64,000 nucleotides of DNA from an uncultured Gemmatimonadales bacterium (GCA_963821525.1 CAWGED010000019.1:992001-1056000), one strand, 5' to 3'. Positions 1 to 28,498 are shown, counted from the first letter of the stretch. The notes: generated by a model not told the origin, from the sequence alone. Made by a program: numbers and translations.

Positions 1-1068
1 GATGACCTGCGCGAGGAGTTTACCCGCGGGGTCGCGAGCGAATACCAGAAGATCCGGGAACAACGCGCGGCCGAGCGGAGGGAGGAGCGGCTCACACCAA
101 TTGGCGAGGCGCGGCGCAACCGGCTGGTAGTGGACTGGAAGGCGGTCCCACCACCCCGGCCGACGTTTCTTGGAATCCGGCAGATCGCGCCCTACCCGCT
201 CGAGGATCTGGTCGAATGGATCGACTGGACTCCGTTCTTCCAGACCTGGGAGCTGCGAGGGCACTATCCCGCGATTCTCGAGGATCCGGAGCAGGGTTCC
301 GCGGCGCGGAGCTTATTCAAGGACGCGAACGCGCTGCTGGAGACCATCGTGAAGGAACGATTGATCGAGGCGCGCGCGGTGTTCGGCTTTCTCCCCGCGG
401 CCGCAGCAGGAGACGATATCGAAGTCTCCAGCGAGAACGGACAGGGAAGTCTCACGGCCATTCGGACCCTCAGGCAGCAGATGAGCCGGCAGCCCGGCCG
501 GCCGAACCTGGCACTCGCCGACTTCGTAGCACCGAGGGATAGCGGTGTGACCGACTTCATCGGCTTGTTTGCGGTGACCGCTGGTCATGGTCTCGAGGAG
601 GTGGTCAAGCAGTTCGAGCAAGCCAACGACGATTATTCCGCCATTCTCGCCAAGGCGTTGGCGGATAGGCTGGCCGAAGCGCTGGCCGAACGACTGCACG
701 CCAGAGTGAGGCGAGAGTTCTGGGGCTACGCGGGTGATGAATCTCTCGACCAGCTCGCAATCATCAGGGAGCAGTATCAGGGGATCCGCCCCGCGCCCGG
801 TTACCCGGCTTGTCCCGATCACACGGAGAAGCGGACCCTGTTCGACCTCCTCCGCGCGGAGGAACGAGCCGGTATCCGGCTGACCGAGTCGTTTGCGATG
901 CTGCCTGCTGCATCGGTAAGCGGCTACTACTTCTGGCGACCGGAGGCCCGCTACTTCGGCCTGGGAAAGATCGGGAAGGACCAGATCGAGGACTACGCCC
1001 GGCGGAAGGGAATGAGCGTCGCTGAGGCGGAACGGTGGTTGGGGCCAAATTTGGGGTATGAGCGGTGA
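1..1068 (+). CDS. metH: B12-dependent methionine synthase, C-terminal part (AdoMet activation domain); 5'-truncated by the window
   Basis: Frame 1 is open from base 1; motifs IDWTPFFQTWEL, LADRLAEALAE, GIRPAPGYPACPDHTEK, LTESFAMLPAASVSG. Confidence 0.95.
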   Translation, partial: DDLREEFTRGVASEYQKIREQRAAERREERLTPIGEARRNRLVVDWKAVPPPRPTFLGIRQIAPYPLEDLVEWIDWTPFFQTWELRGHYPAILEDPEQGSAARSLFKDANALLETIVKERLIEARAVFGFLPAAAAGDDIEVSSENGQGSLTAIRTLRQQMSRQPGRPNLALADFVAPRDSGVTDFIGLFAVTAGHGLEEVVKQFEQANDDYSAILAKALADRLAEALAERLHARVRREFWGYAGDESLDQLAIIREQYQGIRPAPGYPACPDHTEKRTLFDLLRAEERAGIRLTESFAMLPAASVSGYYFWRPEARYFGLGKIGKDQIEDYARRKGMSVAEAERWLGPNLGYER

Positions 1069-14161: not shown

Positions 14162-15268
14162 CTACCGGATTAGCAGACCCGCCAAAGCCGCAGCGAGCAT
14201 GATCAGTGGATCGGGGACTTTTCTGATCCAGACCGCAGTAGCCAACGCCGCAAGAGCAATTACCACCGTCGGAACATCAATCAGAGCGCCGCGAGCCAGC
14301 ACCACGACCGATCCCGCAATCGCGCCGGTCGCCGCGGCGGTTATGCCCGCGACGAAGGCGGCGAGGGCCGGTCGCTTGGCGTACTTCTGGAAATAGGGCG
14401 CGGGAAGAACGGTCAGCAGAAAACAGGGGAGAAATGTGGCCCCGGCTGCGACCACGGCGCCGGCAAACCCGGCCACGAGGTACCCGATGAATCCGGTGGT
14501 GATCACTACCGGGCCAGGCGTTATGAAAGCAACCGCGACCGCATCGATGAACTGCTGCTCTGTGAGCCAGCCGTGCTGGAGGACTACTCCGCCGTGGAGG
14601 AAGGGCACGATTGCGAGGCCGCTGCCAAAAACGAACGAACCGGCGTAGGCGAAGAAGGCCGCGATCTGCAGGAGGAGCCCCGCCTCGGCGGCTGTGCCCG
14701 TTCTCCGCAGCCAGGCCGGCGGGACTCGCCAGAGCCAGGTAGCGAATCCTCCCAGCAGGATGAGAGCGACCAGCTCCCTGCCGGTTACAATCGTGGCAAC
14801 CGCCACCAGCAGGTAGATGCCCCAGAGCAAGATGTCCCGTCCGATTGTCTTGCGGGTGAGAACCCAGGCGCTGCGGCTGATCAGGCCAATCACCGCTGCG
14901 GCAACGCCGTAGAAAACGGCCTGCATCCAGGGCAAGCCTTGGTACAGGGTATAAGCCCATCCCAGTGCTAGAACCATGAGGAAGCTGGGAAGCACGAAGC
15001 TCAGCCCGGCCAGTGTGGCACCGGCTATTCCCCCCCGCACATACCCGATGTAGAAGCAGAGTTGTGCCGCGAGCGGTCCCGGAGAGAGCTGGGCCAGCGC
15101 GATCCCTTCCCGGTACTCCTCCTCGGAAATCCACCCGCGCTGTTCTACCAGGTCTCGATGCATGGCGCCGACCAGGGCAATCGGTCCGCCGAATCCCAGA
15201 GCGCCGAGGCGGAGGAAGTACCATCCGAGACCACGAGTGATCCCGGGCGCGGCTACGACCGCGCTCAT
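14162..15268 (-). CDS. chrA: Chromate efflux transporter (long-chain CHR family)
   Basis: GFGGP...QLSPGPLAAQ and FVFGSG...TPGP half-repeats, multi-TM. Confidence 0.92.
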   Translation of the reverse strand: MSAVVAAPGITRGLGWYFLRLGALGFGGPIALVGAMHRDLVEQRGWISEEEYREGIALAQLSPGPLAAQLCFYIGYVRGGIAGATLAGLSFVLPSFLMVLALGWAYTLYQGLPWMQAVFYGVAAAVIGLISRSAWVLTRKTIGRDILLWGIYLLVAVATIVTGRELVALILLGGFATWLWRVPPAWLRRTGTAAEAGLLLQIAAFFAYAGSFVFGSGLAIVPFLHGGVVLQHGWLTEQQFIDAVAVAFITPGPVVITTGFIGYLVAGFAGAVVAAGATFLPCFLLTVLPAPYFQKYAKRPALAAFVAGITAAATGAIAGSVVVLARGALIDVPTVVIALAALATAVWIRKVPDPLIMLAAALAGLLIR

Positions 15269-16239
15269 GCGGCAAACTCGATACTTCGGCCCGCTCCCCC
15301 GGCGACTGCCCGCTGGTAAACCAGTGCGGCAGCCGCCACATCCTGCACCGCGACGCCGGTGCTGTCGAAGATGAAGACCTGATCCTCGCTGGTCCGGCCG
15401 GGCTTGCGGCCCGCCACCAGATCCGGCAATTCCGCGTAGACCTGGGAGACGGTCATGAATCCGCCCGCAACGGCATGGAAGAGATCACCGATCCGAACCG
15501 CTTGTTCGAGGAGATCGGGCACGACGAGGGCCTCAGCCATGAGGGCAGGGTCAACCTCGATCTTCTCGCCGTTGTCCGCCCCCACCGCAGCGACGAAGGT
15601 CCCGGCGTTGACATCTCCCTGACGAATCAGCGGCGTTTTGGATGGAGTACAGGTGATGCAGATCTGACTCACCGACAGGGCAGATCGCAGATCCGATACC
15701 GCGCTGATCTCGATACCGAGCTCGACCCCAAGCTCGCCAGCGAGCTTTTCAGCTCGCAGCGGCTCTAGATCGTAGGCGTAAACCCGCTCGAGCGGCCGAA
15801 CCAGGTTGAGCGCCCGGATCTGCGCCCGGCTTTGGGCGCCGCAACCGACGATGGTCGCGACTCGCGCGCCTTCCCTTGCCAGGAATCGCGCCGCAACTGC
15901 CGTGGCAGCAGCCGTACGCAGAGCGGTTATGGCGGTGGAGTCGAACACCCCGAGCGGCTCCCCCTGTTCTGCGTCGCACAGGATAACGAGCCCCTGAATC
16001 GTCGGTCGGCCCCGTGCCGGGTTGCCGGGGAAATTCGCGTTGAGCTTGCCGGCCATGTAGCCACCCATTCCCGCTGCCTTGAAGTGGAACCCCCCGCTTG
16101 AAGCATGCAGGGCGCTCACCACGGGCCCCAGGAGTTCTCCGCGAGCCATTGCGAGGAAGCTGCCCTGCACCGCCTCGATGCAGTCGGCGAGCGGAAGCAG
16201 CTGCTCGACCTCACTGCGGGAAAGCAGCAGCGTGCCCAT
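15265..16239 (-). CDS. Ornithine cyclodeaminase / mu-crystallin family protein
   Basis: ITALRTAAATAVA, VGCGAQ Rossmann motif, AVGAD, IFDSTGVAVQD. Confidence 0.9.
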   Translation of the reverse strand: MGTLLLSRSEVEQLLPLADCIEAVQGSFLAMARGELLGPVVSALHASSGGFHFKAAGMGGYMAGKLNANFPGNPARGRPTIQGLVILCDAEQGEPLGVFDSTAITALRTAAATAVAARFLAREGARVATIVGCGAQSRAQIRALNLVRPLERVYAYDLEPLRAEKLAGELGVELGIEISAVSDLRSALSVSQICITCTPSKTPLIRQGDVNAGTFVAAVGADNGEKIEVDPALMAEALVVPDLLEQAVRIGDLFHAVAGGFMTVSQVYAELPDLVAGRKPGRTSEDQVFIFDSTGVAVQDVAAAALVYQRAVAGGAGRSIEFAA

Positions 16240-16706
16240 CAGGCGGGCGCCGGGACGCGCTGCGGATTCCAGCTGTGAGTCTCACCTCTGACATAGCAGC
16301 ACCAGGAATACAGCGCGTCGTAGAGCACGAAGCCGTGACGCAGCTGCTCGTGGTCATCCCGGAAATTGTGGGACAGGCCGAGGGAGATCGCGAGAAGCCC
16401 AGCGCACTGCGGGGCGAGGTCGGGCCGTGCGGTATCGGCGCCGCGGACGATGACAGCCAGCTCGCCTAATGCTGGATCGTCCAGCCGGTATTTCTTGAGA
16501 AACGTGTCGAAGCTGCACAGCGGCCCGTCGTGACTCAGCTCAACGCCCTCGACGTCGTACGGCGTTGCAGCCTGCTTCTGCGCTTCCGCCAGCACTTCTC
16601 CCGGCGGCACGAAGATGAACTCGGGGGATGAATCGATGAATCGAGCGATGAGCCAGGGGCAGGCAATCCGGTCGATCTTGGGTCGTTCACGGGTGATCCA
16701 GCGCAT
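16239..16706 (-). CDS. Chromate-resistance protein with ChrB C-terminal domain only (ChrF-like)
   Basis: WITRERPKIDRIACPWLIARFID, HDGPLCSFD, VRGADT, LYDALY. Confidence 0.88.
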   Translation of the reverse strand: MRWITRERPKIDRIACPWLIARFIDSSPEFIFVPPGEVLAEAQKQAATPYDVEGVELSHDGPLCSFDTFLKKYRLDDPALGELAVIVRGADTARPDLAPQCAGLLAISLGLSHNFRDDHEQLRHGFVLYDALYSWCCYVRGETHSWNPQRVPAPA

Positions 16707-16751
16707 GGGACCTCCTTGGGGCCGGCAGATTGTGGCCCCCGATGCCGAGGT

Positions 16752-16788
16752 GGTACATTTGTATCCATGAATGATTCAGTTGAATCAT
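16752..16788. promoter_or_regulatory. Two palindromes in the divergent chr control region (candidate ChrB operators)
   Basis: GGTACA-TT-TGTATC (16752-16765) overlaps a TACATT -10 box; perfect ATGATTCA-GT-TGAATCAT (16771-16788). Confidence 0.5.
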
Positions 16789-17543
16789 CCCGTCCGCAAG
16801 GGCACCCCCACTGGCTGCTGCTCATACATCAACTGCCGCCCCGACCCCATTATCTGCGGGTGAAGGTGCGCCGCCGGCTGGCCCGGCTGGGAGCCCGGCC
16901 GCTCAAGAACACGGTGTATGCCCTGCCCTGGAGCGAAGAGGCGATCGAGGACTTCCAGTGGCTCAGACGAGAAATCGAGGCGGACGGAGGAGAAGCGGTG
17001 ATCTGCGAAGCGTCCCTCCTCGAGGGTCTGAGCGATGCCGCCCTGGACGGCCGGTTCCCAACGGGTCGCCAGGCAACGCGTCAACCGGCCGCGATCCGGG
17101 TCCGGCCCGACCTGTCGAAGGGCCGGGTCTGGGTCACCAGGAAGGACGTCCACGTCGATCGCATTGCCAGCGCCTGGCTAATCCAGCGGTTCATCGACCC
17201 CAAGGCCCGTTTCAAATTCGTCCCCCCGCAGGGCTACACACCTAGGAAGAACGAACTCCGCTTCGATATGTTCGAGGCGGAATTCACCCACGAGGGCGAT
17301 CACTGCAGCTTCGAAACCCTGGTCCATCGCTTCGGACTCAAGGATCCCGCCCTGCGTGCTCTGGGAGAAATGGTCCACGACATCGACTGTAAGGATAGGA
17401 AGTTCCGCCGCGCCGAAACGACAGGACTACAGCGCCTGATTCAGGGCATCGTGGCGGCGAACGGGAAGGATACCGCGCGATTGCGCCAGGGCACCGTCAT
17501 TCTGGATAGTTTCTACGACGCCTTCGCCTCGCGACGGAAGTGA
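16767..17543 (+). CDS. chrB: Chromate-resistance regulator ChrB (N-terminal plus C-terminal domains)
   Basis: WLLLIHQLPP...RVKVRRRL...VYALP; WVTRKDVHVDRIASAWLIQRFID; FTHEGDHCSFE. Confidence 0.88.
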   Translation: MNDSVESSRPQGHPHWLLLIHQLPPRPHYLRVKVRRRLARLGARPLKNTVYALPWSEEAIEDFQWLRREIEADGGEAVICEASLLEGLSDAALDGRFPTGRQATRQPAAIRVRPDLSKGRVWVTRKDVHVDRIASAWLIQRFIDPKARFKFVPPQGYTPRKNELRFDMFEAEFTHEGDHCSFETLVHRFGLKDPALRALGEMVHDIDCKDRKFRRAETTGLQRLIQGIVAANGKDTARLRQGTVILDSFYDAFASRRK

Positions 17544-20653: not shown

Positions 20654-21388
20654 TCACAGCATCAGGTGAGCGAGCTCCTTTCCCTCCGGCGCAGCTGAAG
20701 AGGATCCCATCGGCTCCAGCGTCAGCGCCGCTCCCATCACCTGTCCGCCGCTCGGCGGCATCGGCAGGGTGAGAAACGCCGGGGTGCGTTCCCCGGTCTT
20801 CACCTCGACGCCACGAACCATTCCGGTTTCGGTGATGAACCAGAACTGGCACATCTGTCCCGGTTGCGGCGCGGGAAGGCCGTAGACCACGACATTCCAG
20901 CGGTGGGTGCGCTCATCGGCAAAGATGACCATGCCACCCTCCTGCGCTCCCATGCGGATGCTGGCGTGCCGGACCAGGCTGGCCGTGCGCATGATCTCCA
21001 GAGTGTCGCGCGCCATCTCGAGCTGATGGGAGAGGTTAGCCCTGGCCTCCTCGGTAGTTCGCTCTGCGGACCGAACCCGCGATGTGGCCCAAGTCCAGGC
21101 GCCGACAGCGAGAACCAGCGAGGCGGCCGCCGCCAGAAGGGGGGCAAAGCTCCTCCGAGGCCTGATACCTAGCGCGGACTCGACCAGGCGTCGCTTCAGC
21201 TCCGGCCGCGGCGTCACCGGCGTGGTCCCCAGCGGAAGCCAGGCCAGTTCCTGTTCGATCTGGTGAATCGCCTCGCGGCAATCCTCGCAACCCTCCAGGT
21301 GAGCGCGGAAGGTCGATTCCTCTTCCGCTTCCAGGCTTCGGACGACGAAGGATGTCCGATGCTCCACGAACCAATCATGCGCGCTCAT
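20654..21388 (-). CDS. Anti-sigma factor (ZAS domain, TM, RskA-like C-terminus)
   Basis: HLEGCEDC (HxxxCxxC), TM helix, C-terminal QFWFI...ALTLEP..SSAAPEG. Confidence 0.82.
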   Translation of the reverse strand: MSAHDWFVEHRTSFVVRSLEAEEESTFRAHLEGCEDCREAIHQIEQELAWLPLGTTPVTPRPELKRRLVESALGIRPRRSFAPLLAAAASLVLAVGAWTWATSRVRSAERTTEEARANLSHQLEMARDTLEIMRTASLVRHASIRMGAQEGGMVIFADERTHRWNVVVYGLPAPQPGQMCQFWFITETGMVRGVEVKTGERTPAFLTLPMPPSGGQVMGAALTLEPMGSSSAAPEGKELAHLML

Positions 21389-22023
21389 ACGACCCAGTCT
21401 TTGATGGATGCCAGAGATACCCGCAGCTTATCGAACGCCAGACGCAGGCGCGTCTTGACTGTGCCCAGTGGAATGCCGAGCCGTGCGGCGATTTCGGAAT
21501 GCGTGAGACCTTCGAAATAGGCCAGCTGGACAACGGCGGCTTGTTCTTCGGTGAGCCCCCGAAGGGCCTGGTGAACCGATTCGTGGACGTGCCAGCCCGG
21601 CATCGCGGCTTCATTCGGCTCGACCGGCCGGGTCCAGCCCTCACCCGCCTCTCCAAACGCGCGGTAGCGCTCGATCTTCCCGACCTGACGCTTCCGCCGC
21701 CTTAGCCGGTCTATGGCCCGGTTTCTGGTGATGCGGAGGATCCAGGCCATCAACCCGCCTTCCGCGCCGTCGTACAGATCCACCCGGCGCCACACGATGT
21801 TGAAGGCTTCCTGAACGACTTCCTCCGCTTCGTCTCGATCACTGAGCATGCCGTAGGCAACGCCGAGCAGCCACGGGGTAGCGAGATCAACCAGCTCTAC
21901 GAGTGCCTGTTCGTCTCGCGCCAGCAGCCGATTGTAGAGGGAGGTCTCCTGCGCGCGGGAAAGCAACCCACGGCTGGGCTGTCCCGGATTGGGAGAACGA
22001 TCGGACGGGAATGAGCGCGGCAC
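21385..22023 (-). CDS. ECF RNA polymerase sigma factor (SigK-like)
   Basis: AEEVVQEAF, WILRITRNRAIDRLR, LAYFEGLTHSEIA, GTVKTRLR; start uncertain. Confidence 0.9.
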   Translation of the reverse strand: MPRSFPSDRSPNPGQPSRGLLSRAQETSLYNRLLARDEQALVELVDLATPWLLGVAYGMLSDRDEAEEVVQEAFNIVWRRVDLYDGAEGGLMAWILRITRNRAIDRLRRRKRQVGKIERYRAFGEAGEGWTRPVEPNEAAMPGWHVHESVHQALRGLTEEQAAVVQLAYFEGLTHSEIAARLGIPLGTVKTRLRLAFDKLRVSLASIKDWVV

Positions 22024-22155
22024 CTGCGATGGCTGTCAGGTGGCGATGGCGGGACGAAACATCATGGCCTCCTCGGCACTGTAAGGTACACCAGATTGGG
22101 GCTGTACTCTTTCACAACGCCGGGAGGCCGGGTTTGGTTCTAGCTTGCCACTTGC

Positions 22156-22185
22156 TTGACGCCCGGACGGACCGGCCGCTATAAA
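22156..22185 (+). promoter_or_regulatory. Sigma70-type promoter immediately before the leader ORF (probably a leaderless mRNA)
   Basis: TTGACG-18 nt-TATAAA; ATG 8 nt downstream with no SD. Confidence 0.6.
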
Positions 22186-22193
22186 TCGGCCCC

Positions 22194-22544
22194 ATGGCCG
22201 GCCGCCGCCCGAGTTCGCTGGGATCTTTGCTCGCCGCTGTTCTGATACTTGGAACGGCGGTAGTCCCGTCATCCATGGCGGTTGTGGCGGCCATCGGGAG
22301 GGTTCCATCCGGCCATCATCATGGGGAAAGTCACTCTCCCGGCAAGAGCCCTCCCGCGAGTTGCTGTGATCTATGCTGGACCGCGTGCGGCACCGCCCCT
22401 GGAGCCTCGCCCCAAGCTGCGCTGCCCAGGGTGCTGCTCACCGGCACGCTGCGCTCCCCGATTCCCGCCGTAGGCCTTCTCGCAGCGCTGACGGTCGCTC
22501 ACCGTCTCCCCTTCGCACAAGGTCCTCCGCGCTTCCTGTCGTGA
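22194..22544 (+). CDS. DUF2946/CruR-like His/Cys-rich leader peptide with a C-terminal QGPP arrest-like motif
   Basis: N-terminal hydrophobic helix, GHHHGESH, CCDLCWTAC, ends LPFAQGPPRFLS, 44 nt upstream of a TonB-dependent receptor. Confidence 0.75.
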   Translation: MAGRRPSSLGSLLAAVLILGTAVVPSSMAVVAAIGRVPSGHHHGESHSPGKSPPASCCDLCWTACGTAPGASPQAALPRVLLTGTLRSPIPAVGLLAALTVAHRLPFAQGPPRFLS

Positions 22545-22588
22545 TCTGAGATCGCCAAAACGTCTCGTTCCTCACAACAGGAGCTCGC
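22529..22588 (+). promoter_or_regulatory. RBS-sequestering hairpin between the leader ORF and the TonB-dependent receptor
   Basis: TTCCTGTCGTGA (22533-22544) pairs with TCACAACAGGAG (22572-22583, contains the AGGAG SD) at 11 of 12 positions; inner stem GAGA(T)CG/CGTCTC. Confidence 0.65.
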
Positions 22589-24597
22589 ATGTACGTCCGT
22601 ATGGCGGTCCTGGCGCTCGCGCTGGGGCCGGCGGTGTTGGGCGCACAACAGCCCGCCGATAGCGCCAAAACCGATACCACTCGGGCCAAGGCCGACACGA
22701 CTCACCCCAGGGAGTTGCAGGAAATCACGGTGACGGCGGCGCCGGTAAAGCGCGACCGCCCGTTGGGGAGCGTGACTATTACCCCGGCGATCATTCAGCA
22801 AACCCCTTCGATCAATACCGTGGACCTCCTCCGGCAGACCGCGGGAGTCGAGGCGCATGATCAGGGACAGGGCCCTGGATTCGCGTCGGACCTGGCCATC
22901 CGGGGCTTCAGCTCCGACCACTCGACCGACATGGCGCTCTGGATCGACGGCGTCCCGATCAACGAGCCGGTTAACGGGCACGCCGAGGGATACAACGACT
23001 GGAGCCTGTTGATGCCCCAGTCGGTGCGGCAGATGGACGTTTACAAGGGCCCGACCAGTGCGCTGTACGGGAACTTCGCGCTGGCCGGGACCGTCAACGT
23101 TCGGACCCTTGAGCGTATGCAGGGGAGCGACTTGTCCATTCAGGGTGGCTCCTACGGCCACGTCGAGGCGTCCGCCTTGACCGGTGTGGACCACGACCGT
23201 ACCGGGGCGGTCTTTGGTATTCGCGGGGTGACCGAGACCGGCTGGCGGCCCCACAGCGAATACAATCTGGGCCAAGGTCACGCCCGGGTCGTACACGACC
23301 TCTCGAGCAGCACCAGCCTCGACGCCGGGATCGAGCTGTATGCCGCCGGGTGGAATTCGCCGGGATTCATCACCGCCTGCAGGAGTATCAGGCGGGAGAC
23401 TTCGACGAAATCGCCAATCCGACCGACGGCGGGTTCAAGCACCACGGCCAGGAGCGCGTGAGCCTCAGGGTGCTGAGCGGCTCCTCCATGATCTGGCGGA
23501 GCACCCTCTATGCCACTCAGGGCCGCTGGCAGCTGTTCCTCACCACGCCACCGGAGGGAGGCAGCACTGAAGGGAGCGGCAGTCAGGTAGAGGAGGAAGA
23601 CCACCGCTACGGCTTCGGTGCCAACTCAGCGCTTACCTGGACCCTCCAGAAAGGAGAGGTCACGGTGGGTGTTGAGGGTCGCTGGGACCACTCTCACTAC
23701 GAGAACTACTTCACGAGCTCCCGTTCTCGAGACTCGAGCCAGGTGCTGGTGACGGCCCGCCAGGCTTCCGGAGCGGTATTCCTTGAGTCCACCTATGAGG
23801 CGGTCCAGCGACTGTCCCTCACGATCGGCGGGCGCTACGAGGCACAAGGCACCGAGTCCACTCCCGACGGGGGGAGCACCGCGAGTGACACGAAGGGCGT
23901 GTTCGTCCCCAAGTTCGGCGCGCTCTACCGCCTTCCTGGCTTCGGTGGGCTGTATGCGAACGTGTCCCGCGGCTATCGCCGGAGCGACGGAGTCATCGAG
24001 GACCCACGGTACCGTTCATCACCGCGTGGGCCTACGAAGGCGGAGTGAAAATGGACCTCCAGCGGGTCACTGCGAGCGCCGCGCTGTTCCAGGTGGACGT
24101 CAGCAACGAGCAGACCTTCGACCCGATCACGCTGTCCTCGACCAGCGGAGGCGCAGAGCCGGAGGAAGGGGATCGAGCTGGGACTTCAGGCCCAGGTGAC
24201 CCCGGGGTTGAGCGTCTCAGGAGACTTCACGGCGGTGGACGCCAAGTACAAGAGCCTGATCACGGAGGAAGGGGACACCCTTTCGGGAACCCGCATTTTC
24301 AACACGGCGAGGTTCGTTGGATCGTTTGCCGTCGCCGTTGCGCCACCCAGTTCGTTCTGGAATTTCAGGGTCAGCTCCAACCTGGTGGGACCCTACACGC
24401 CGTTCGATGAGCCCGGAGTGGAGTTGACCACTTACGCCCTGCTGCACTTCAGTGGCGGAGTGCGGTTCGGACACACGCTCCTGAGCATCGGCGTCAGAAA
24501 TGTCCTGAACGATGCCTATCCGGAGCTCCGCGCCGGAGGATTCATCTCGCCGGGCCAGCCCCGCTCAGTCTACGGGACAGCCCGGTATGTCTTTTAG
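22589..24597 (+). CDS. TonB-dependent receptor; three apparent frameshifts (about 23377, 24006, 24155)
   Basis: Signal peptide, TonB box EITVTA, plug DLLRQTAGV...IRGF...IDGVPIN...KGPTSALYGNFALAGTVN; barrel continues across ORFs 23350, 24045, 24196; ends RNVLN...PGQPRSVYGTARYVF. Confidence 0.9.
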
Positions 24598-26179: not shown

Positions 26180-26379
26180 TGCGCATCGTTTCATTGTTGC
26201 CGGCGGGGACAGAGATCGTCGCGGCACTCGGATGCGAGACTCTGCTGGTCGGCATCGGCCACGAAGTTCGTCCTACGCGGCGACCCGATGACCTCGCCTC
26301 GCCAAGTCGTCGAGATCTGCACAGTCTGGCCCGGGCTCACCGGCTAGGCGGGTCCATGCAGTGCGCCTCCGCGCCTTAG
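26179..26379 (+). pseudogene. N-terminal fragment of a BtuF/cobalamin-binding-like periplasmic binding protein
   Basis: MRIVSLLPAGTEIVAALG...LVGIGHE matches the family N-terminus; similarity stops after about 29 codons and the ORF ends at 26379. Confidence 0.7.
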
Positions 26380-28157
26380 GGGTGAGCTGTCCCGATGGTG
26401 AATGATCGTCAACCCACATGGTCTGGGTGACCGGAGATCCCACCCCGATGTACGGCGCGATCAGGAACTGATTGAACTTCATCGTCGAGTGGATCCCGGT
26501 CCGGAACAACACGTTCTGGTGGTCGATCAGCAGTTGCCCATCGAACCAGTACTGGGCGATCCCGTTCAATTGCCCCTTCCCGCCCTGAATCGTATTCAGC
26601 TGGAAATAGGCCTCGACGTGATGCCAGTCGTTCTTGTATCCCGGACCCGGCGCAGGCTGTGAACGCGGGCTGGCTGCCTTCCATTGCTTGCCGTTCCGCC
26701 ATTCGGTGCCGGATTGGTAGCAGTCCGTCGCATAGCCGTCGGTGTCGCCGTTGCACCCGCCGCGGCGCGATTCTCGGTGATCAGTGACAGGTCCTGATTC
26801 AGTCTCGCGGCGTCGATATTGAGCGCGTCCTGCATCGCCAGGATCGGGACCCCGCCGTTCTGGTAGTTATGCTCGACATAGGTCGTCAGATGGGTGGCCG
26901 AAGGTCCGATGTACTGGCCATCCTCGTCGGTGATGAACTGGAACTCATGGGGATGATAGCTCACCCCGGATCCCACCCAGTTGGAGCTGTACTTCACCCA
27001 GTAGCTCAGGTACACGGTCTCGGTGGGGGTGAAGCGGACCGCATCGAGCCGCCGAAAGTCGGCGTTGACGACCCCTGGTTGAACGTCGCCTCGAGAGACT
27101 TGGTGCCGCCCGGCCGGTGCTCCGCCGTCGGTGATCGTGAGGTTGGTGTTGTCATACCAGCCACGCGCCGCAAAGCCGGTGTCCTCGAAGCCCTCCTGCA
27201 CGAGCGTAGTCGGCGGAGGAGGTGGCGGCGGAGGCGGAGGTGGCGGCGCTGAAGTCGTGTCCCGCATCACGACGGCGGCCGAATCGCCGATCGTGCTGCC
27301 TGAGAGCAATAGCGCGCACCACGAAATTGCCGCCAGTCGGTCCCGCGATATAGGTGCCGGTGGTCGACACGGTGCCGCCGGTTGAACTCCAGACCACCGT
27401 TACCGGGCGGGAGACCGAGTCGGACCACTGTCCCTGCGCCACAAAGTCCGGCTCGCACCGGGATCGAGGGTCACGCTAGCTGGAGTGACATCAAGAGAGA
27501 CCACTGCGGGGACGGAGGGGAGGTTGAGTCCCGTATCTCCACTGTGGCTGAATCACCAATCGAAGTGCCGACGCAAAGGCCCGCACTACGAAATTGCCGA
27601 CGGTCGGGCCTGCAGTGTAGGAACCGCTGTTCGAGACGGTGCCGCCCGTCGAGCTCCACAGGACGGTCACCGGACGCGCGACCGAATCCGACCATTGTCC
27701 CACGGCTGCGAAGGTCTTCTTCTCGCCCGGACTGAGCGTCACGGTCGCGGGGGTGACATCGAGCGAGTTCAGGTGTGGTGTCGGAGGCGGAGGTGGAGGC
27801 GCACCGCTGGAGTCGACCGTCACCACGGCCGAGTCGCCGTAGCCACCGCCCTGAAAGACCGCGCGCACCACGTAGGTCCCCGGCGTCGGCCGAGGCCGTG
27901 TAGGTGCCGTTGGCGGCCATGGAGCCGCCGGATACTGTCCAGGTAACCGGCACCGTCCCATGACTGCCGTCGCTCCAGAAGCCCTGTGCAGCGAAGACCT
28001 GACTGGTGTTCGGCGCCATGGTCACGCTGGTCGGTGTGACTTCGATCGACGTGAGCTCGGCAGGATCGAGACCGCCGGACTTGGCAGGAACAGAACAGGC
28101 AAGAAGCGAGAGCGAGGCCGCGCGGGTGAGGAGCCCGACGTGACGGGTCAACGTCAT
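26376..28157 (-). CDS. Lipoprotein with three Ig-like (Big_2-like) repeats, polyproline linkers and a C-terminal jelly-roll / polysaccharide-lyase-like domain; many frameshifts
   Basis: Lipobox SLLAC; repeats (I/L)(E/D)VTP..VT...WSD...VxWxxxGG...YxA; P-rich linkers; VYLSYWVKY, QYWFDG, FNQFLIAPYIG, MWVDD; stitched from several ORFs. Confidence 0.7.
27211..27247 (-). repeat. Polyproline-coding tract (12 Pro)
   Basis: Run of CCN codons giving SAPPPPPPPPPPPPTT. Confidence 0.9.
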
Positions 28158-28230
28158 GGACCTATCCAGAGTAAGCGTAGGCAGCCCAGCCGTTTTCCCG
28201 TCCACCACCACCGCCCCTGGGAGCGACGTA

Positions 28231-28259
28231 ATGATGCTAGGCGCTGCTGCAGATGTCAA
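28231..28259 (-). promoter_or_regulatory. Sigma70-type promoter for the Ig-repeat lipoprotein, with an AT-rich upstream region
   Basis: Minus strand TTGACA-17 nt-CATCAT. Confidence 0.55.
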
Positions 28260-28498
28260 TGTTAAATACAGTACACCGAGTCTAATAATTCTGTTGAGCA
28301 TTGGTCAAACTGCTGATTTGATTGTGATTACAAGCACATAGAGATTTTCAGGCAAGTAGCTACTGACTGGTTTTATGACGGTATGGCATTCCCGGAAATG
28401 AGGCTGATTCCCGCGCTGGGCCTCGACCCGCCTAGACAAAGCCTCAAGCGCCACCAGATTAGCCGCCCTGTCTTTCGCCGAGAGAGGTAGAACCTCGA

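Follow-up and report, generated by a model that had tools for sequence, protein, structure and literature searches.

An Arg-less Pro-Pro leader peptide of the CutF/CruR kind upstream of a TonB-dependent receptor in Gemmatimonadota

The closest described systems to the locus reported here are two copper-responsive leader peptides. CutF of Rhodobacter capsulatus, encoded in cutFOG (PMC8456105; PMC9973294; bioRxiv 10.1101/2025.02.05.636593), ends in P109EPEGPPPRL118, has a CxxxC motif and is followed by a 40-bp intergenic stem-loop (PMC8456105). According to PMC9973294, copper induces the CutF stall, CutF alone does not stall strongly, and CutF-like proteins in front of TonB receptors are already a described class. 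CruR (Bp2923) of Bordetella pertussis is a DUF2946 (PF11162) protein that acts by copper-triggered, Rho-dependent termination and has a 162-bp intergenic region (PMC9426467); its arrest was shown in PMC12992588. CruR and CutF respond oppositely to copper. A further group comprises the RQH/RAPP arrest peptides and uA_LPPP (PMC10987492; PMC10951233), and Arg is essential in RAPP arrest peptides (PMC10951233). The mechanism class considered below is already published, and CutF is already an Arg-less GPP leader with a hairpin over the Shine-Dalgarno (SD) sequence.

The leader ORF and its family

We analyzed a window of 64,000 nucleotides from an uncultured Gemmatimonadales bacterium (GCA_963821525.1 CAWGED010000019.1:992001-1056000). 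On its plus strand, ORF calling and homologues identified a CutF/CruR-like leader ORF of 116 aa (22194-22544) upstream of a TonB-dependent receptor gene. Its translation contains a hydrophobic N-terminus, the segments GHHHGESH and CCDLCWTAC and the C-terminus LPFAQGPPRFLS, all of which an earlier note on this DNA had described correctly. Codon changes compared with genome G001 affect third positions 64 times and first and second positions 33 and 32 times. An AlphaFold model of the leader is mainly coil (pTM 0.27), with helices at residues 8-23 and 27-34 and no predicted folded domain. Residues 1-29 (22194-22280, plus strand) are predicted to form a Sec-type signal peptide or anchor, as judged from these helices and from a basic n-region, a hydrophobic core and SMA in the sequence. 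A predicted metal site (22314-22388, plus strand) consists of the His cluster H41-43 and H47 and the Cys cluster C57-C58-x2-C61-x3-C65; in an alignment of 82 leaders C61 is invariant, and H41, C58 and C65 are each found in at least 90%. Conservation further points to a candidate arrest motif, H103-R-L-P-F-A-Q-G-P111-P112 (22500-22529, plus strand), whose Pro-Pro codons (22524-22529) are followed by four residues and an intergenic gap of 44 nt to the receptor.

Directly upstream of the leader we found a promoter-like element (22156-22185, plus strand) with TTGACG at 22156, a spacer of 18 nt and TATAAA at 22180-22185, ending 8 nt before the leader ATG. A consensus promoter scan of the window did not list it; the scanner needs a T at position 6 of the -10 element. 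The arrangement TTGnnn-15..19-TAnnnn-4..10-start recurs in 34 of 85 homologues, compared with 29 of 6020 control positions (0.5%), and is absent before all 85 receptor starts. Leader starts had been chosen without promoter features, and an SD-like word precedes them in only three of 85 cases. The transcript is thus likely leaderless or near-leaderless, in agreement with the proposal of the earlier note. At five loci (L030, L062, L066, L069 and L098) the upstream gene's stop codon and the leader ATG share nucleotides (TGATG), and no promoter-like element is found there.

Receptor homologues occur in 26 of 61 related genomes and in further genomes; those relatives that carry names are Gemmatimonadota. 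The 130 loci collapsed to 110 distinct receptor matches, and removal of eight with less than 800 nt upstream left 102. A leader is present at 98 of these 102 Gemmatimonadota loci, as expected for the lineage-specific family that had been suggested, and none was found within 900 nt at the remaining four. A script that calls upstream ORFs with a Pro-Pro end returned 97 leaders, and L048, where copC follows the leader, was added by eye; at L117 the script picked the wrong frame and the leader is visible by eye. In 87 loci the leader has a strict P-x3-[GA]PP end, although these columns are fixed by construction, since the script favoured this pattern; as chance background, 56 of the 33,919 open segments in the own genome contain almost the same pattern. 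Excluded from the 87 were PPP-type tails (L067, L068, L071, L073, L085 and L086), L008, L023, L130 and the mis-called L117. Two members without an SD word (L044 and L046) were set aside, giving 85 loci for the RNA tests. All loci are related by descent, and the counts overstate their independence.

The residue before [GA]PP is Ile in 21, Leu in 18, Asn in 17, Gln in 11, Val in 10, Thr in seven and His in three of the 87 leaders, and never Arg. Leu precedes the first Pro (position -7) in 69 and His occupies position -9 in 44 of them. What stays constant is L-P at -7/-6 together with [GA]PP, and the motif read from the alignment is an Arg-less H-x-L-P-x3-[GA]-P-P. A profile built from the 82 aligned leaders matched 2441 representatives (50% clustering) at E<=0.001, and 149 of the best 150 carry the motif. 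In these 149 the variable residue is N (65), I (29), L (20), Q (14), V (10), T (8), S (2) or M (1) and again never R, although this absence is only partly independent because the profile itself has no R at this position. In a quickly built receptor tree six loci with QGPP, the window among them, form one clade, Gln reappears in one other clade, and the residue switches repeatedly along the tree. Given these low frequencies and this variation, we rejected Gln as the functional residue, and the QGPP motif of the earlier note did not hold; from its wider (Q/R)(G/A)PP, the [GA]PP part is conserved and the Q/R part is not. In a proteome depletion test LP-x3-[GA]PP was observed twice with 5.8 expected, so that depletion is not clear. 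Surveys keyed to R, Q or H would mostly miss the predicted arrest motif.

Upstream of the motif, the distance between the first Cys and the residue before [GA]PP is 49-54 residues in 79 of 87 leaders, and the sequence of this linker is free. The Cys pattern itself varies, with CxCxxxC in 26 and CCxxCxxxC in 22 of the 87 leaders. At least three His are present in 85, and the His-rich segment has a median of six His together with three to five Cys. The six excluded PPP-type leaders have an FxPxPPPP tail, head the same receptor and contain CxC in five of six cases; this motif swap arises at several points on the receptor tree. Candidate look-alikes of the leader (Atlas, unaligned) were seen in Nitrospirota and Verrucomicrobiota.

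Relation to CutF, CruR and RAPP leaders

CutF is alike in these features: about 118 aa, a probable signal peptide, CxxxC, an Arg-less P-x3-GPP end and a short stem-loop over the downstream SD. The published rules for CutF-like proteins (PMC9973294) ask for fewer than 150 aa, a PP within the last 15 residues and a same-strand neighbour within 1000 nt, and the window leader agrees with each of them (116 aa, PP plus four residues, 44 nt). They also ask for a Sec signal peptide, and the N-terminus resembles one in its sequence and in the structural model. CxxxC (C61-x3-C65) and a predicted SD-shielding stem-loop are likewise present, and EF-P is encoded in the genome. In contrast to CutF, the family motif is H-x-L-P-[FPY]-[ASP]-x-[GA]-P-P, which ends in two prolines and is apolar in its upstream part, and the family has extra Cys, a His cluster and a leaderless-type promoter. 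The cargo also differs, being an importer here and a detoxifying oxidase in CutF.

CruR shares the position of the uORF ahead of a TonB receptor and a fixed spacing between Cys and motif. The CruR-type placement as the first gene before a TonB receptor or copper genes applies here, and so does a CxxC about 45 residues ahead of the motif: C58-x2-C61 is present, C61 lies 47 and C65 43 residues before Q109, and this spacing is narrow across the family. In the numbering of the papers, spacings of 53/52/49/45 here compare with 44/40 in CutF and 50/47 in CruR and are nearer to CruR. Paralogous operons of the family contain PCuAC, SCO, CopC, YcnI, MbnPH, PepSY and AhpC/TSA, another CruR-like trait. 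Unlike CruR, which acts through Rho, the leaders have no RAPP and no Arg (none in 87 loci and 149 proteins), and the Arg-less motif fits CutF PEPEGPPP better than CruR RAPP. The earlier note had suggested a DUF2946-type leader, and the window leader gave no match to this model (PF11162, cut-off 23.7 bits). E-values of 1 or lower were obtained for 44 of the 82 members, the lowest being 2.5e-5; close orthologues reach 17-21.5 bits, and one protein, P0010, which NCBI names DUF2946, passes the cut-off at 25.5 bits.

RQH/RAPP arrest peptides resemble the family in having an export signal and, close to the C-terminus, a [GA]PP, and QAPP arrests in a Myxococcales leader. However, R, Q or H is required there, whereas the position is free here (I, L, N, Q, V, T, H), with Q or H before [AG]PP in only 14 of 87 leaders, and the downstream genes are not sec/yidC. 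Classical CxxC/RAPP DUF2946 leaders do exist in the same phylum (L217-L230, L132, L134, L137 and L138; two on contig C4 of the window's own genome, G000). They share the layout and precede TonB receptors and efflux channels, but differ in having CxxC at 48/45 before RAPP. Against a profile of these RAPP leaders the window leader reaches E 7e-4 in a set of 3209 PP-ending segments, and a profile-profile comparison aligned only the signal region (19 columns, probability 72%). On contig C4, the RAPP leaders are the ORFs ending at 161029 and 164752. Each has one Cys, and the latter ORF precedes a TonB-receptor-like gene.

Taken by sequence, the leader is probably CutF/CruR-like in mode, is no member of the CruR or RQH groups, and agrees with the CutF-like rules wherever these can be applied. 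We found no account of this Arg-less Gemmatimonadota family in the literature searched, although it may be among the proteins in the logos or File S1 of PMC9973294.

A hairpin over the receptor SD

The last leader codons and the stop codon (22533-22544, plus strand) form the 5' arm of a predicted hairpin, TTCCTGTCGTGA, which lies at P+9 to P+20 counted from the first Pro codon. The 3' arm, TCACAACAGGAG (22572-22583), belongs to a segment (22572-22591, plus strand) with the receptor SD AGGAG (22579-22583) and the ATG (22589). In the minimum free energy (MFE) structure 11 of 12 arm positions pair, with one G-U and one C/A mismatch, around an inner stem-loop (22547-22567, plus strand) that close relatives keep only partly. 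This is the pairing that the earlier note had described. In energy alone the hairpin is unremarkable, with z -1.42 for 121 nt (17 of 200 shuffles as good) and z -2.11 for 81 nt (9 of 200); its significance comes from the homologues. The SD of the window has an unpaired probability of 0.02 in free RNA. A search against Rfam returned nothing relevant. For the paralogous and RAPP leaders the hairpin test gave a patchy picture, since many of the starts there resisted assignment.

Comparison across the 85 loci points to conserved pairing at the place where a ribosome on the Pro-Pro codons would sit. Pairing of the SD inside P-3..P+17 is predicted for 67 of 85 loci compared with 13.5% of 510 shuffles, which bears out the suggestion that the anti-SD lies under such a ribosome; inside P+6..P+17, beyond the Pro codons, the values are 45 of 85 and 3.9%. 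The remaining 18 loci do not show SD pairing. This footprint pairing spans intergenic lengths of 38-188 nt and, when only lineages under 75% identity are counted, holds for 37 of 43. Some receptor starts, notably in the 177-188 nt group and at L089, may be mis-assigned. Arm duplexes are more stable between cognate (-12.0 kcal/mol on average) than non-cognate partners (-9.0; 0 of 10,000 permutations), while control segments gave -8.4 and -8.2 kcal/mol, respectively. In 77 of 85 loci the native tail codons beat the synonymous median as anti-SD. Covariation of the stem, which had been proposed as a check, was found in a set of 27 loci, chosen for a single register: directly 5' of GGAG the pair is A-U in seven, U-A in six, G-C in four, wobble in three and unpaired in seven, and the next pair out is C-G in 18, G-C in five, G-U in one and unpaired in three. 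Two alignments, of 16 and seven sequences picked either for that register or as close relatives, agree with compensatory pairs flanking the SD. The conserved leader, its motif and this covarying anti-SD support the cis-acting leader of CruR/CutF type that had been put forward.

It is highly unlikely that the locus acts mainly by Rho-dependent termination like CruR and that the hairpin is a secondary lock. Rho is encoded, leader 3' halves are C-rich (C 0.45, G 0.27, compared with 0.33/0.33 in receptors), and some loci have 150-190 nt of intergenic sequence. Pro codons account for part of this C excess, however, the window has an intergenic region of only 44 nt that is predicted to be paired, and covariation of the anti-SD speaks directly for translational control, although the two mechanisms are not mutually exclusive.

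We then consider how far a ribosome at the motif would free the SD. Blocking the footprint lowers the median opening cost of the start region from 13.4 to 8.6 kcal/mol across the 85 loci. In the window the decrease is only from 14.6 to 11.0 kcal/mol and the SD unpaired probability, 0.02 before, reaches no more than about 0.18, as a weaker helix with the beginning of the receptor coding sequence takes over. A terminating ribosome is predicted to open the stem of the window likewise. As the footprint frees the SD partly and termination would do the same, gating would have to depend on dwell time. Ordinary translational coupling behind a free periplasmic metal-binding protein, or behind a secretion monitor with no metal role, would also make use of a terminating ribosome covering the anti-SD, and signal peptide and His/Cys residues are in line with such a protein. 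We regard this reading as very improbable indeed, since no folded domain is predicted, the cargo is not Sec machinery, and a linker of fixed length and free sequence with a conserved Pro-Pro end fits a function of the nascent chain. A cis-acting stall attenuator, whatever its polarity, is very probable.

The receptor, copper genes and the polarity of control

The TonB-dependent receptor (TBDT) gene (22589-24597, plus strand; Pfam Plug and barrel) is interrupted in this assembly by frameshifts at three places, near 23377, 24002 and 24153, which the earlier note did not mention. The intact protein in G001 and G003 has 668 aa. The three frameshifts are probably assembly errors, even if three indels in 2 kb exceed the assembly average: frame changes affect 30 of 101 G000 genes compared with G001 (0.24 per kb), and each indel is absent from related contigs. 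Codon changes of the receptor on the G000 branch are 31 non-synonymous and 134 synonymous, compared with 18/80 and 18/72 elsewhere, and show no relaxed selection. A pseudogene is therefore disfavoured. A gene for an Ig-like repeat protein (26273-28301) is also split over several frames, consistent with assembly indel errors.

The leader-receptor cassette varies within the genus. At window position 22152, G003 (L142) has about 3.2 kb that include a second leader-receptor pair, divergent from the first, with LPYAVGPP in the leader and 43% identity in the receptor, and G001 (L140) has the same back-to-back pair. G000 has the first pair only; G002 (L021) and G004 (L020) have only the second, beside the same aminotransferase. 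An ECF sigma factor and an RskA-like anti-sigma (20654-22023), divergent from the leader, are probably unrelated to it, because the second cassette separates them in G003. A chromate transporter and two ChrB-type genes around an ornithine cyclodeaminase-family gene lie at 14162-17543.

By sequence, the receptor belongs to an unnamed Gemmatimonadota subfamily. A model of the G001 orthologue has the TBDT fold, and a fold search returned generic TBDT matches at 14-20% identity, with OprC ranking only 35th. No NCBIfam model scored above its cut-off, and none of the 25 matches listed was of OprC type. Plug residues His90, His111 and His131 are conserved in 62, 63 and 63 of 63 receptors, and no Cys is conserved. 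The gene usually stands alone, and a plasmid search gave one distant receptor match. CopC or SCO genes accompany the receptor at L048 and L106; nine downstream ORFs, picked by eye from at least 45, include SCO (L106) and DM13 (L063 and L065).

Evidence on the ligand comes mainly from paralogous leaders. Leader profile matches occur in 36 of 61 genomes, and 20 regions not tied to this receptor yielded 19 paralogous [GA]PP-type leaders. Eight of these precede CopC/D, YcnI (DUF1775), PCuAC, SCO, MbnP/MbnH or CtaG genes, and most others precede other TonB receptors. We scanned 40 neighbour proteins behind these 19 and two weak-scoring PPP-type leaders, and every metal-specific family among them was a copper family. 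The same families are listed for CruR homologues (PMC9426467). Of the two PPP-type leaders, L213 precedes a Cus-type efflux set and L212 an unassigned protein with CopC/D, and their Cys spacings are shorter (47/41 and 45/44/38). MbnP-MbnH pairs at L208 and L211, the latter also with CopC/CopD, are headed by the [GA]PP type. At L198, L200 and L204 the leaders precede exported proteins of 229-285 aa that are His-rich at the N-terminus and match Pfam weakly or not at all, possibly TonB-independent metal pores.

Since paralogous leaders head copper-handling genes of this kind, copper is a likelier ligand than a new metal, and the different metal suggested earlier finds no support. The same attenuator could respond to Zn, Ni, Co or thiol redox state instead, and the His-rich segment as well as a receptor with three plug His, no conserved Cys, no NCBIfam match and a distant OprC would suit such a ligand. 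We consider this unlikely, given that the metal-specific families among the 40 neighbours scanned were all copper ones; moreover, CrtA likewise has no Cys/Met and uses a His (PMC12914433).

Our preferred reading, which we hold at about even chances, is a copper-sensing arrest peptide whose predicted stall would expose the SD and be released by copper, so that cells would produce the receptor chiefly when copper is short. The leaderless-type promoter would start the mRNA at or near the leader ATG, and the signal peptide would engage Sec during translation. When the first Pro occupies the P site, 45-53 residues separate the Cys cluster from the catalytic centre, a spacing seen directly, and the cluster would be about at the periplasmic side, judging from PMC9973294. 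The anti-SD begins 9-12 nt after the first Pro codon regardless of intergenic length in the compared loci. A ribosome paused at Leu-Pro-x-x-x-Gly-Pro-Pro would sit on the anti-SD arm and favour receptor translation, until copper binding to the exported Cys/His segment released the pause and turned the receptor off.

This copper-off polarity is inferred from the cargo. Importer cargo and CruR-like spacing favour it, whereas motif and RNA favour the copper-on mode of CutF: the motif, CxxxC and short SD hairpin match a leader that is copper-induced and stalls weakly alone, and the Arg essential in RAPP peptides is absent. With the polarity of CutF, copper would induce or prolong an EF-P-sensitive pause that opens the hairpin, and receptor and copper-chaperone genes would be on with copper. 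The Arg-less P-x3-GPP end, CxxxC and 40-bp stem-loop of CutF (PMC8456105) have their counterparts here in CxxxC and a 44-nt gap, EF-P is present, and much of the cargo is cuproenzyme-assembly machinery. Yet most cargo consists of importers, and the importer characterised behind CruR is repressed by copper (PMC9426467; PMC12914433). The PPP-type leaders L213 (efflux) and L212 have shorter Cys spacing than the [GA]PP family, but these are two cases only, and long-spacing RAPP leaders also precede efflux channels. On balance we think it rather unlikely that the locus follows CutF in this respect.

Returning to the copper-off reading, the family might, more tentatively, form a third class of metal-sensing arrest peptide, Arg-free with H-x-L-P-x3-[GA]-P-P, on leaderless mRNAs phylum-wide, joining the CutF motif and hairpin to the CruR copper-off logic and gating an undescribed His-plug copper receptor. 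We find this doubtful as a whole; if true, the Cys-to-stall distance, not the motif, would decide whether copper frees or jams the chain. Such a rule of spacing setting polarity was considered; it draws on CutF and two loci and has counter-examples.

That the element is real, conserved and regulatory, a lineage-specific variant of CutF/CruR leaders, is well supported by sequence comparison. The family joins CutF-like cis-parts and CruR-like cargo in about 100 natural variants at one locus, and the same genomes also carry classical RAPP leaders, giving a ready test set for the determinants of polarity. It also suggests that this phylum, abundant but little studied, has a copper-supply regulon and an unnamed receptor subfamily.
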